64,000 nucleotides of DNA from Sedimentisphaerales bacterium (GTDB lineage Bacteria > Planctomycetota > Phycisphaerae > Sedimentisphaerales > SM23-30): contig CAXXFK010000023.1 in NCBI GenBank assembly GCA_963663965.2, positions 1-64,000 on the forward strand, in the 5' to 3' direction. Shown one piece after another: positions 1,966 through 64,000 of the stretch. How positions within the stretch are numbered: the first letter of the stretch is position 1; every line of letters starts with the position of its first letter. The position numbers and the translations under genes are program-made. The notes under the pieces are model-generated. The model was not told where the DNA came from, ran no database searches, and worked only from the letters and a program-made list of their open reading frames with translations.

Positions 1966-3697
1966 AAACCCTATCCGGATAATTTATAAACAACGCCGCC
2001 GGAATCTGCTCTGGCGCCAGAAAAGCCGCCAGTGTCATCACCGCCCTCGCTACCGCCCCCAGTTGCTGCTCCGTCAACGCCCAGACCGTCAATACCGGCT
2101 TGAAATCCTCCCCCAGCCCGCTCAATACTTCATCAAATCCCAGCAGTGTATCCGCCATTTCCCGATAACGCCCCAGGTACTCCTCAAACGCTATCCGCCG
2201 GTAATTGATATAAGCCGCCGCCTGTTCCAGCGCCACCGGCAGCCCATCCAACACCTTCGCCAGTTCCTCAACCTGCTCCCCATCATTCTTCCGTTCTGCC
2301 CGTTTCCCCTTCGTCTTCGCCGGCAGATACTCAATCGACGCCCTCTCCGACAATTTCTCCAGTTCCAGGCAGGCTATCGTACCTCCCAAACTCTGCAACC
2401 GCGAAGTCACGATCACCTTCCCACCCGCCATACTCGCCAGCCGCGTTACCATCTCCCTCACCGCCGCCGCCATCTCCGGCTCATCCACATTATCGAACAC
2501 CACCAGCCACTTTTCCCGCTCGCCCAGCTTTTTCAACACCGCCCCCACCGCCGCCTCCGGATCATCCAGCGGATATCCCGCCACTTCCAGCAGGTCCGCC
2601 CGCCCCAGCTTGCCCATCTCCACCATCAGCCGCTCCCTCGCCCCCCGCCTGACCTGCTCCTGTTCATCACCCCCCATCGTTTTTTGATCCCGTTCCTTAC
2701 CCTTCTCCTGCCCGCAGTTCACAAACAACACCGCCCGATACAACCCCTCCTGTAATCCATACCACCCATACTCCACCGCCAACCGCGTCTTGCCAATCCC
2801 TCCCAGCCCGCCAATCGCCTGCGTAATCGCCATCGCCCCACCCGCCCCATCCAGCTTCGTCTTGAGCGAGTTAAAATCCTCCTCACGCCCCTTGAATAAA
2901 TCTCCCAGCGAATCCCACGGAATATTTTGTATTATCCTATCCGAAATATCCGTTTTAGGATTTTCTCTATTGTGATAATGGTGCTCATGCTTCTCCTTGA
3001 TATAATCGCCTTCCACATATATCCCACCATCACCAATGTTCCCGACCCTGCCACGGTCTTTGACAATAACGCCGAGCCCGCTTACGATATCCCCCGGCGC
3101 CAATGCCAAATCACCAAAATATTTTTTCACCGCTTCAATAACCGTCTCAATCACCCGGTCCGACTCCCCGGTAATATGCCCGGCCAACTCCTCCGTCTGT
3201 TCATCCAGCATCTCCTCAAATGCCTCCCGATTCTCCCCGATATAAGCAATAATCCCATCCAATATCTTTGGCTGTTCATCCAGCATCTTTGCTACACAAC
3301 CCTGTATCGCCTCCAATTGTTCCGCCTGCCTGTCTTGTTCATCCCGGATCACCCCCAGCGTCGCATTATTAAACGACACCACCTGATTCAAAAATCCCAT
3401 CCGCTCGTCAAACACTTCCTGCAAGTTCACCCAGTAATACTCCTTCACCTCCTCATCCGCCAACCTCGCCTTGGCGGCCAGATACTCGATCAACCGTTCC
3501 TTCTGTTCCGCCTCACTCTTCCCTTTCAACGCCTTCCCCATCGTCAGCCCGAAAAAACCGGCCGCCGCCCCCACCGCCACCGGTATCCCCGCCATCACGC
3601 CCCCATCCATACCATGTGCGTATAGACACGCAAATGCCACATTACTATAAAAAGTCACCGCCGTATCATACAGGACCTTCCAAAACTGCTTTTTCAT
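1850..3697 (-). CDS. N-terminal part of NLR-like STAND NTPase (hydrophobic/coiled-coil N-terminus + NB-ARC-like domain), frameshifted
   Basis: Walker A GLGGIGKT, Walker B WLVVFDNVD, VIVTSR, LDGLPVALEQAAAYI; start taken at ATG 3697 (MKKQFW) behind a purine-rich RBS-like sequence. Confidence 0.85.
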   Translation of the reverse strand: MKKQFWKVLYDTAVTFYSNVAFACLYAHGMDGGVMAGIPVAVGAAAGFFGLTMGKALKGKSEAEQKERLIEYLAAKARLADEEVKEYYWVNLQEVFDERMGFLNQVVSFNNATLGVIRDEQDRQAEQLEAIQGCVAKMLDEQPKILDGIIAYIGENREAFEEMLDEQTEELAGHITGESDRVIETVIEAVKKYFGDLALAPGDIVSGLGVIVKDRGRVGNIGDGGIYVEGDYIKEKHEHHYHNRENPKTDISDRIIQNIPWDSLGDLFKGREEDFNSLKTKLDGAGGAMAITQAIGGLGGIGKTRLAVEYGWYGLQEGLYRAVLFVNCGQEKGKERDQKTMGGDEQEQVRRGARERLMVEMGKLGRADLLEVAGYPLDDPEAAVGAVLKKLGEREKWLVVFDNVDEPEMAAAVREMVTRLASMAGGKVIVTSRLQSLGGTIACLELEKLSERASIEYLPAKTKGKRAERKNDGEQVEELAKVLDGLPVALEQAAAYINYRRIAFEEYLGRYREMADTLLGFDEVLSGLGEDFKPVLTVWALTEQQLGAVARAVMTLAAFLAPEQIPAALFINYPDRVFEAAGILDGEFDEGGYRAKSEVEKADGVEGGAGRTGGV

Positions 3698-4099
3698 ATT
3701 TCCACCTGAATCTTTTGAACACAAAACAGAATCCATCAAACCTGTCCCTCCATTCTACCCCAATCCCCCAATAATTACCAGCATCCATAATTTCAATAAC
3801 AATCCCGCCATACTCCCCAGCCCGTTAATTATTCAAAAAAACCACAAATAATATTTGACTATTACAAAACACAACACTATAATTACACAATTGGTAAACC
3901 TCCCCCCAAAAAGCCCACCCAACCCAGGCTCTTTGAAAACTAAATAAATACCCACCCACAAATAGGGCCGCCCAGCACAGCTGTGTCTTCCCCGGCCGAT
4001 CGCTTGCCCCCATACAACTTGCCTGCTTACTTTTTGCCATTTCCTCTTTGCGCCTTTCCAACTTTTCGTCTCTACGACTTTTTGCCTATTCGCCTTTTT

Positions 4100-62484: not shown

Positions 62485-62637
62485 TTAAAGACTCCTTATA
62501 TCTCGAATCTATATAAAACACAGTATATATTATTTTGTTGACAACTCCTGAAATCAAAATAAATCTTTAAGATCAAGTCGCCGAATTTCATATCAAAATT
62601 GAAACCGCCCTAAAGATATATAATCACAAATATTATG

Positions 62638-62757
62638 TTAATAAGTTCCAAGTAAGCTAAACTGCGACAGGGGCAATTCTTCTTCCTTCAACCAGTTATT
62701 TGCCATTAATGCCAGATCTTTAACCTCTTCCGGCTGTTCCTTCACTTGCTTCACTAT
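62638..62757 (-). pseudogene. 3' remnant of a gene probably interrupted by the IS110 element
   Basis: Open frame from the IS end: IVKQVKEQPEEVKDLALMANNWLKEEELPLSQFSLLGTY*; DLALMANNWL resembles the dockerin-like motif ending the 52289-56614 protein. Confidence 0.5.
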
Positions 62758-62989
62758 CTTCTATGAAGCCAGAGGTCAAGAGGGAAAAGTGGTTTATATG
62801 GCATTTTATTGTATTTCCTTATTTCAAAACATGTTATCCTGTCCTTGCCCTTGCGGAGGATAAGGCAACGCTGAGGAGCGACCTGAGCGCCGTCAAGGGG
62901 TCCGGGAAGGCAGGCGGCGTACCTACGCCGCCCCTCCTGCCTTTTTGGACGATAAGCGATAAACCTGATCAAACAAATTTTCGCGCAGC

Positions 62990-63160
62990 GAATCCTTATT
63001 TTTATTCGATAAAATGCTCGATTGTTTCAGCCTTCTATCCGGGGTGTCCAGGTCTTCTTTTTTTACCATGGTCCCATTCCATCGTTTACGATACGGCTTA
63101 ATCTTCACGTCAGGCTCTAGACCCATCAAGTGAAACAAGGTTCCATATCGATGTCAATCA
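62990..63160 (-). ncRNA. Candidate bridge/seek RNA in the IS110 3' non-coding end (boundaries approximate)
   Basis: Internal ATAGAAG (63032-63038) identical to the inferred element terminus (62758-62764); local hairpins; IS110/IS1111 elements are known to encode guide RNAs in their non-coding ends. Confidence 0.55.
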
Positions 63161-63221
63161 AGCAAAATCTAAGCATTCGTTAAAATCAGTCAAAGAACGG
63201 TACGCGATCAAAACGTATTTT

Positions 63222-64000
63222 TTATCCGGATACGGCAGCCTTCAGCGGCGGCATCTGCCAGGGCGTCCCATCGCGCAACATCGCCCACATCCGCACAAAC
63301 AACCGCCGCGCCACCGCGATAATCGCTATCTTGGAGCGTGTCTTGCTGTCGCGCCGGATCCGCTGATACGTTTCTCGTATCCACGGATTGGTTCGCTGGC
63401 CCAGCCAGCAGATCTCCACCAGCAGACTTCGCAGCAAACGATTGCCATCCTTACTGATGCGGCCCTGCCGGTCGATCGTTCCCGATTGATACTGGCGCGG
63501 GGTCATACCGATATAGCAGCCCACCTGCTTGCAGTTCTGAAACCGGTGGGGATTATCGATTAAAGCGGCCACCGCTTCGGCCGTCCGTTCGCCCACGCCC
63601 GGAATGGTCGTGAGCAATTGCACGTGCCGGTCCGTTTGGTTCAGGGCATGCAGTTTGTTGTCGATCACCAACAACAATTCGCCCAGAGTGTGCAATAACT
63701 CCAATTCCACCCACAAGCTGCCACGCCAGAGCGCCTCCACCGGCACCTCGGCCATGGGACAGGCCAGACTCCGCAAATGGGCGATCTGTTTTTGCGACCA
63801 GCCGTTTTTGCCGGAAGGCATCGGCAGGGCCTGACGATCCAGCAGCGCCCGGATGGTGTTTTTGCATTGTGTTATTCGTTCGACGATACTTTTCCGTTCA
63901 TTAATCAAGGCCCGTTTCTCGCGCACCGCCTTACCCGGCACATAGACGGTCGGCAGATCGCCCAGTGCCGTCCGACGGGCCAGCCACAGCGCATCCTTGC
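63222..64000 (-). CDS. IS110-family transposase/recombinase (5'-truncated by window)
   Basis: Frame open to the window edge (KDALWLAR, end of the DEDD domain); TIPGVG, YIGMTPRQYQSG, GRISKDGN..LR, AIIAVARRL. Confidence 0.95.
   Translation of the reverse strand, partial: KDALWLARRTALGDLPTVYVPGKAVREKRALINERKSIVERITQCKNTIRALLDRQALPMPSGKNGWSQKQIAHLRSLACPMAEVPVEALWRGSLWVELELLHTLGELLLVIDNKLHALNQTDRHVQLLTTIPGVGERTAEAVAALIDNPHRFQNCKQVGCYIGMTPRQYQSGTIDRQGRISKDGNRLLRSLLVEICWLGQRTNPWIRETYQRIRRDSKTRSKIAIIAVARRLFVRMWAMLRDGTPWQMPPLKAAVSG

Follow-up and report, generated by a model that had tools for sequence, protein, structure and literature searches.

The 464 nt of non-coding DNA that follow a transposase gene near the right edge of the window (the whole stretch analysed, 64,000 nt: contig C23:1-64000 of a 7.2-Mb, 42-contig genome) can be assigned with good confidence. 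They make up the right, and longer, non-coding end of an insertion sequence (IS) of the IS110 family that is intact and has the anatomy of the IS1111 group, and would encode a bridge RNA or seekRNA. Judging from comparison with relatives, the ~150 nt at 63164-63015, read on the transposase strand, are most likely the part that encodes this RNA. The element is, by its anatomy, an ordinary, well-preserved IS1111-type IS, a system of known kind, and our understanding of IS1111-type guide RNA systems is unchanged by it. What it adds is an intact, recently active RNA-guided IS of this type from an uncultured planctomycete, in which both ends, the natural target, unoccupied sites and four candidate guides are all readable from the sequence.

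The element, its ends and its target

The element and its insertion site are represented in the window by four features:

62758-64000, minus strand: in-window part of the IS, delimited by a second copy, empty paralogous sites and contigs skipping 1,640 bp
63222-64000, minus strand: in-window part of the transposase coding sequence (Pfam and NCBIfam matches), with its stop at 63222
62758-62773, minus strand: right subterminal inverted repeat TCTGGCTTCAT (62773-62763) followed by a 5-nt extension, AGAAG (62762-62758); the repeat complements the left repeat ATGAAAGCCAGA, with one extra A on the left
62739-62757, minus strand: right half of the target site, which belongs to a dispersed repeat containing GTGAAG; empty sites on contig C36 show the target uninterrupted

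The longest open reading frame of the transposase starts at 64307. Translation probably begins further in, at the ATG at 64277 (MKTIMAIDLGK), which yields a protein of 351 residues and was chosen because the ATG-AAR-ACT/MKTIMAIDLGK start is conserved in relatives. The translation matches PF01548 with 45.8 bits (cut-off 29), PF02371 with 89.6 bits (cut-off 21.3) and the NCBIfam model NF033542, 'IS110 family RNA-guided transposase', with 206.6 bits (cut-off 140). It combines the N-terminal DEDD/RuvC-like and C-terminal IS116/IS110/IS902 domains of the IS110 family, to which an earlier note on this DNA had also assigned the element. The motif G--P----SG, described as conserved in the C-terminal domain of IS110-family transposases (PMC11187229), is present as GMTPRQYQSG. 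Among the plasmid matches listed by tblastn, named IS transposases are ~26% identical or less, and the best match of any kind reaches 41.8% identity (Acaryochloris). PDB matches to ISCro4 and IS621 cover the C-terminal domain only (IS621, E = 3.5e-14).

Contig C23 extends beyond position 64000, so that the left end of the element can be read outside the window. The whole IS is 1,640 bp long (C23 62758-64397, minus strand), and its left end consists of a 5-nt extension, ATATC (64397-64393), and the subterminal repeat ATGAAAGCCAGA (64392-64381). In transposase orientation, the left junction reads TTTACCGTGAAG, ATATC, ATGAAAGCCAGA and the right junction TCTGGCTTCAT, AGAAG, ATAGTGAAGCAAG. The two repeats form 11 pairs and carry extensions of 5 nt each, in keeping with the subterminal repeats of IS1111 elements (7-17 bp with short extensions). 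Three lines of evidence bear on the ends. First, a second copy on contig C30 aligns at 99.88% identity over 1,661 bp (BLAST of the region against the whole genome); both mismatches lie in the target halves on either side, which leaves the two element copies without any difference. Second, two empty paralogous sites on C36 (~13725 and ~14317) align along both flanks and lack the element, and the uninterrupted 15-nt target is found there with 0 mismatches in one site and 1 in the other. Third, contigs from two public sequencing runs jump exactly 1,640 bp, from 62758 to 64397. A reading of these contigs as the excision product was rejected, since they carry several differences and represent a paralogous empty site. 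The right end at 62758 that the earlier note had read is borne out by all three, and the alignment of other copies and empty sites that it had proposed as a check defines both ends through the C30 copy and the two C36 sites. The letters that it reported there are likewise present: 464 nt after the stop, ending in TTGACC (62779-62774), tctggcttc and ATAGAAG (62764-62758).

Homology in the C30 copy and the C36 empty sites stops within GAAGATA, a 7-nt sequence common to the target and the element. Because the two share these 7 nt, and no longer stretch, the sequence places the crossover within GAAGATA but leaves its exact position unreadable. From alignment to relatives we infer a crossover after GAAG, which gives the ends at 62758 and 64397 and the length of 1,640 bp. 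The target is one member of the dispersed repeat; the C30 copy sits in another member, and a near-identical unoccupied paralogue lies on C11. Both copies occupy the same position of the repeat, that is, insertion is sequence-specific and lacks a classical target duplication, as in the IS1111 group.

The non-coding DNA is unequally divided between the two ends, with 464 nt downstream of the gene (63221-62758) versus 120 nt upstream, counted from the start at 64277, so that the longer non-coding end lies 3' of the transposase gene, as in IS1111 elements. Subterminal repeats and a non-coding region downstream of the gene are described for these elements (Siddiquee et al. 2024, PMC11187229), and 93% of them had a bridge RNA predicted in the right end (Durrant et al. 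2024, PMC11208160). The earlier note had looked for the guide RNA downstream of the gene, a location supported by the conserved fold and by the co-variation of candidate guides with their targets. Its view of this location as a planctomycete-type trait does not hold, the arrangement being the norm for the IS1111 group in both of these accounts (PMC11187229, PMC11208160).

Past the right end, the 'unrelated reading frame' noted earlier amounts to an open stretch of only 37 codons, and no ORF of at least 40 aa starts there; this stretch is the right half of the repeated target sequence. It occupies window positions 62643-62757, has an 85%-identical paralogue on C36, ends in ...LALMANNWLKEEELPLSQFSLLGTY, and may be the remnant of the 3' end of a gene carried inside the repeat. 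Another repeat of ~60-70 bp, overlapping a promoter-like match from the consensus scan, lies just outside the element, at 62508-62576; at least 13 other contigs carry ~30 copies of it between them, 79-94% identical.

The predicted RNA and its candidate guides

In the mechanism that we favour, a closing helix would enclose two modules. The target module would present, in the internal loop of a stem, TTTCACT for the top strand (right target half) and CGTGAAGAT for the bottom strand (left half). In the donor module, a hairpin would stand between GATGG, whose predicted partner is the 5-nt left-end extension, and ATAGAAG, which equals the last 7 nt of the right end. The RNA, once produced and bound by the transposase, would bring the joined ends of a circular form into register with the target, and strand exchange would take place inside the shared GAAGATA. 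The corresponding features are:

63015-63164, minus strand: predicted bridge/seek RNA core, 150 nt (folds of 11 relatives, covariation, covariance model R1)
63164-63155 with 63024-63015, minus strand: closing helix P1 (shared folds)
63152-63143 with 63096-63089, minus strand: target-loop stem P2 (single folds)
63129-63135, minus strand: putative top-strand target guide TTTCACT, which complements AGTGAAG in the right half of the target
63123-63113, minus strand: inner hairpin P3 (shared folds)
63101-63109, minus strand: putative bottom-strand target guide CGTGAAGAT, identical to the left target half up to the junction
63079-63083, minus strand: candidate right donor guide GATGG, pairing with TATC of the left-end extension (4 pairs, one G-T)
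63075-63039, minus strand: donor-side hairpin P4/P5 (shared folds)
63032-63038, minus strand: putative left donor guide ATAGAAG, the same 7 nt that close the right end
62998-63015, minus strand: AU hairpin containing ATTTTATC, not conserved (14-column gap in relative B, alignment A1) and unlike the real left end

The comparison rests on ~90 loci taken from related genomes and from one genome per species, mostly Planctomycetota with a few cyanobacteria; a scan of metagenomes added a single relative, L116. By kinship, the genome of the window falls into one family with a Sedimentisphaerales MAG. For families B and C, with 9 copies each, the ends were defined through copies, as for the window element; relative B, the closest, is 66% identical. 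Several traits recur across families: a ATGAAAGCC-like left repeat, a GGCTTCAT-like right repeat, a left extension of 5 nt, and TTGAC at constant spacing from the right repeat, on its upstream side. Automated scoring of inverted repeats mis-set the left ends of several loci (for example L009, L041, L047, L048 and L052), and those rows were excluded from the left-target tests, which use 9 hand-checked families.

Folded singly, the sequences of 11 relatives have in common P1, a long stem P2/P2a with P3 in its internal loop, and a second hairpin P4/P5. When the 26 pairs of P1, P2a, P3, P4 and P5 are imposed on a MAFFT alignment (A3), 80.8% of cells are paired, versus 27-43% when the partner is slid by 1-3 columns. 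Two-sided changes occur in 13 of the 26 pairs, and the observed covariation score was reached by 0 of 500 shuffles, a count that, like the other shuffle counts, overstates independence because the relatives are kin and represent only ~5-8 independent classes. P2, which A3 aligns wrongly, is not among the counted pairs and draws its support from single folds and from reading; RNAalifold on the MAFFT alignment recovers 12 pairs only. The covariance model R1, built from A3, has 63015-63164 as its sole match in the window, by construction, as the window sequence is in the seed. It also matches non-seed relatives, namely L100 (4e-16), L056 and L103 (both 4e-8), L013 (9e-8) and three weaker ones; a covariance model from homologous 3' ends had been suggested by the earlier note. 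Folding of the whole 467-nt tail is no better than that of shuffles (z = -0.77), and the comparative support is confined to the 150-nt core. A search of Rfam with the whole element and its flanks (4,401 bases, both strands) yielded no match at E up to 1.

The two putative target guides lie on either side of P3. For the bottom strand, the 7 nt before a conserved AAURGG-like motif were compared with the final 7 nt of the left target of the element concerned. Own scores in the 9 families are 7, 7, 6, 7, 7, 6, 5, 7 and 7 of 7, and cross-class controls, in fixed alignment columns, have a mean of 3.07 (n = 60, maximum 6). In the window element, CGTGAAGAT is identical to the left junction at 9/9 positions; L116 likewise reaches 9/9 with a different sequence. 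For the top strand, the segment preceding P3 is complementary to the crossover and the right target. Own scores in 11 relatives are 6, 8, 9, 9, 2, 8, 9, 6, 5, 9 and 8 of 9, thus 8-9/9 in 7 of the 11, with a cross mean of 4.38 (n = 98, maximum 7). The lowest scores belong to L109, L057 and L050, single-copy elements whose right flank does not fit the guide. The window element itself scores 6/9: its TTTCACT-AGTGAAG pairing begins 2 nt past the inferred crossover and requires a 2-nt bulge or no pairing at the crossover, and an alternative register through the third GTGAAG in the target is possible. These fixed-column tests were used in place of an unrestricted longest-match test of guides against flanks, which separated poorly (own means 6.9 and 5.6 versus cross means 5.0 and 4.4). 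Read along the RNA, TTTCACT (63135-63129) is 5' of CGTGAAGAT (63109-63101), and the published order in IS1111 seekRNAs is the same, the top-strand match lying 5' of the bottom-strand match (PMC11187229).

A left donor guide could be examined at 72 of 90 loci, where the right-end CATAG and an internal ATAG can both be located. The trinucleotide after the internal ATAG is the one after the right-end CATAG at 60 of these 72 loci, or in 39 of 49 distinct RNAs; when the right ends are permuted, the latter count averages 18.4 and never exceeds 28, with 39 reached in 0 of 10,000 permutations. Agreement extends over six classes (AAG, AAA, GAG, AGG, TCG and TAG). As for the 12 disagreeing loci, 2 are mis-picked internal sites (L046, L049) and 10 differ from the guide at one position, with the mismatch in four loci falling one position short of the guide's end. 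In family B, the eight listed copies diverge right after ATAGAAA, which marks the right end there. The repetition of ATAGAAG is by itself marginal: the 64-kb window contains the heptamer 10 times, counting both strands, versus 4.36 expected, and a second one on the same strand within ~460 nt has chance odds of ~0.04. Its weight comes from the comparison with relatives, which lends good support to the reading of ATAGAAG as a copy of the right end that changes along with it, and supports the role of left donor guide that the earlier note had given it.

For the right donor, the comparison was between the 5 nt that precede the second AAURGG motif and the 5 nt separating the crossover from the left repeat. 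Against their own left ends, 10 elements of five sequence classes score 4-5/5, with a cross mean of 2.62 and 5/5 in 6 of 60 cross-class controls; GATGG against ATATC, in the window element, scores 4/5 by hand count. GATGG is a candidate right donor guide and the weakest of the four guide assignments.

Donor guides may not be needed at all, since an 82-nt ISEc11 seekRNA without the distal, or donor, part was reported to be enough for transposition (PMC11187229). It is conceivable on this ground, if in our view quite unlikely, that the target loop acts alone and that the protein recognises the ends through the subterminal repeats. Just as improbable is the accompanying role for the internal ATAG+NNN copy, which would then serve elsewhere, for example in regulation, in excision or in pairing within a read-through transcript. 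The short right donor candidate, weakly separated from its controls, agrees with such a reading, but ATAG+NNN follows the right end through six classes and the 5 nt before AAURGG change with the left-end extension through five, both as donor guides predict. We consider it very unlikely that there is no guide RNA and that the strings belong to the DNA itself, for example as sites inside the element to which the transposase binds or as the vestige of a target left by an old rearrangement, in which case cis-acting DNA would be what is conserved. The lack of an Rfam match agrees with this, and no RNA sequencing run was listed among those containing the stretch, which is no sign that it is silent; but half of the 26 pairs keep pairing through two-sided changes, which DNA binding sites do not need; one guide copies the target and the other is its reverse complement, flanking a hairpin as in the published seekRNAs (PMC11187229); and NCBIfam calls the protein family RNA-guided. 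Hardly any credence can be given to the earlier note's donor loop of ATAGAAG (63038-63032), a small hairpin in the 16 nt GCT...AGC, and ATTTTATC (63015-63008) as right donor guide, with a left end ATAAAAT and a junction TTGACC-17-TAAAAT: the letters are as described and the ATAGAAG part fits the comparative data, but the contig past 64000, its own set check, reads ATATC and ATGAAAGCCAGA, unrelated to ATAAAAT, the 16 nt are better explained as the 3' strand of P1, pairing with 63164-63155, and ATTTTATC is the 5' arm of the AU hairpin, in a stretch missing as a 14-nt gap from the 66%-identical relative B.

Candidate transcription signals, the predicted circle junction and the distal module

Around the RNA core of the favoured bridge/seek RNA reading, the following signals and structures were noted:

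63166-63193, minus strand: sigma-70-like promoter TTGACT, 16 nt, TAGATT (consensus scan, 9/12 matches)
62980-62992, minus strand: terminator-like hairpin with a U-rich tract (consensus scan; sequence conserved in relative B)
62909-62941, on the + strand: G+C-rich hairpin with a T run (same-orientation hairpin in relative B; absent from the consensus-scan list)
62848-62899, minus strand: conserved distal stem-loop module, an outer stem round a hairpin with a conserved C-C mismatch (two-sided outer-stem changes among the element, B and L116)
62774-62779, minus strand: outward-facing -35 hexamer TTGACC, lying 16 nt from the right end (most relatives carry TTGAC equally far from their right repeat)

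The promoter-like site at 63193-63166 ends two bases 5' of P1; the scanned region holds 5 such sites versus 1.4 expected. The hairpin at 62980-62992 is a possible 3' end of the RNA, and that at 62909-62941 looks like a terminator facing into the element from outside.

In a circular form of the element, the right-end -35 would be brought next to a -10 from the left end. Joined on paper, the ends read TTGACC, 17 nt, TATCAT (64396-64391), so that the circle-junction promoter proposed earlier keeps its right-end -35 and its 17-nt spacing, while its -10 is TATCAT and not TAAAAT. Family B shows the same geometry (TTGCAT, 17 nt, TACAAT), and family C would have a poor -10. Contigs assembled from 4 sequencing runs contained no joint of the right to the left end; contigs drop rare forms. 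A junction promoter may also not be the only one, because the left end has a conserved TGnTATAAT of its own. This TGnTATAAT-like box, at C23 64359-64351, lies ~40 nt inside the left end and recurs in 5 of 8 listed families and, more weakly, in a sixth; the consensus scan did not pick it up. It is possibly an internal transposase promoter that is independent of the circle junction.

A further observation concerns the same end. The string GCCAGAATG at C23 64386-64378 is the reverse complement of CATTCTGGC at 64287-64279, just 5' of the start codon, both outside the window. Their pairing is retained despite two-sided changes in families B and C and in L045, L044 and L050, and often covers the GGAG ribosome-binding site, which looks like a fold-back that would occlude translation in transcripts entering from outside.

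The distal module belongs to ~220 extra nt that the subclade of the element, B and L116 has between the RNA and the right end. Its core motif is found at 11 of 90 loci. Many contigs of two other samples match the 40-nt core (62854-62893) of the module, with high depth and unrelated flanks; a search of the genome with the distal 186 nt found only the two IS copies.

Relation to known systems and occurrence in relatives

The closest described counterparts are the IS1111 seekRNAs of ISEc11, ISPa11 and ISKpn4. They share with the present element, according to the published account, a DEDD transposase, subterminal repeats with extensions, a long downstream non-coding end, insertion into a repeated sequence, the order of the guides, and matches that flank a hairpin (PMC11187229). 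The non-coding region of IS1111 elements is reported to give rise to a transposase-bound RNA of 82-96 nt and to a longer one of 154 nt, lengths to which the element's modules of ~87 and 150 nt may be compared (PMC11187229). At the ISKpn4 locus, the left repeat also starts with ATG, the right repeat ends in CAT plus an extension, and an internal GGATATG copies the right end; the best R1 match there falls in the 3' non-coding end and is weak (10.8 bits, E = 0.027). The present element differs in its planctomycete host, in its distance from the named transposases listed (~26% identity or less) and in the ~220 extra nt of its subclade with their stem-loop module. Donor guides, which co-vary with the ends here, are not described in that account (PMC11187229).

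As described for the IS621 bridge RNA (PMC11208160; structures 8wt6 and others), there would be two target and two donor guides, one for each strand, a crossover in a short sequence shared by donor and target, and an expected circular intermediate. IS621 differs in having its RNA upstream of the gene, with the guides in reversed order (PMC11187229), subterminal repeats of only 2-3 bp (PMC11208160), and a protein match limited to the C-terminal domain. The predicted donor guides here flank a hairpin in a multi-branch junction and do not sit in a closed internal loop, a comparison made apart from the published figures. A looser likeness, by description and not by sequence, is to ISPpu9 with its Ssr9 RNA: an IS110 element in repetitive extragenic sequences with a downstream small RNA gene and circular intermediates (PMC12288879). 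A literature search for IS110 or bridge RNA in Planctomycetes or Planctomycetota returned no related paper.

It has also to be asked whether the planctomycete and cyanobacterial clade forms a distinct bridge RNA variant. Such a variant would be set apart by three traits jointly: donor guides in a three-way junction that are always prefixed with ATAG, mirroring the CATAG of the right repeat; an RNA that is its own transcription unit in the right end (promoter 63193-63166, terminator 62992-62980); and, in the subclade of the element, B and L116, an added structured module (62899-62848) controlling excision, direction or expression. We regard this as unlikely. The protein and RNA pair nevertheless widens the catalogue of programmable recombinases, in view of its ~26% or lower identity to the named IS transposases listed, and the family-wide ATAG+NNN rule offers a simple finder of right ends and candidate donor guides in related elements.

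Several relatives showed features of their own. Around 1397-1420, L052 adjoins GGTTCGAGTCC, which we take to be the tRNA T-arm consensus; its top-strand guide complements GGTTCGAGTCC at 9/9 positions, and L052 appears to target a tRNA gene. In L056, the right-end motif GCTTCATAG is repeated five times at 88-bp spacing (3345-3700), forming a tandem array of right ends. Finally, in runs X1 and X2, contigs at ~230-270x match only the conserved stretches C23 63089-63125 and 64232-64291 (L001 1990-2026 and 3133-3192), and their loose ends resemble family B. Their depth, compared with ~4-10x for the window organism, suggests that a related IS is far more abundant in the same sample.
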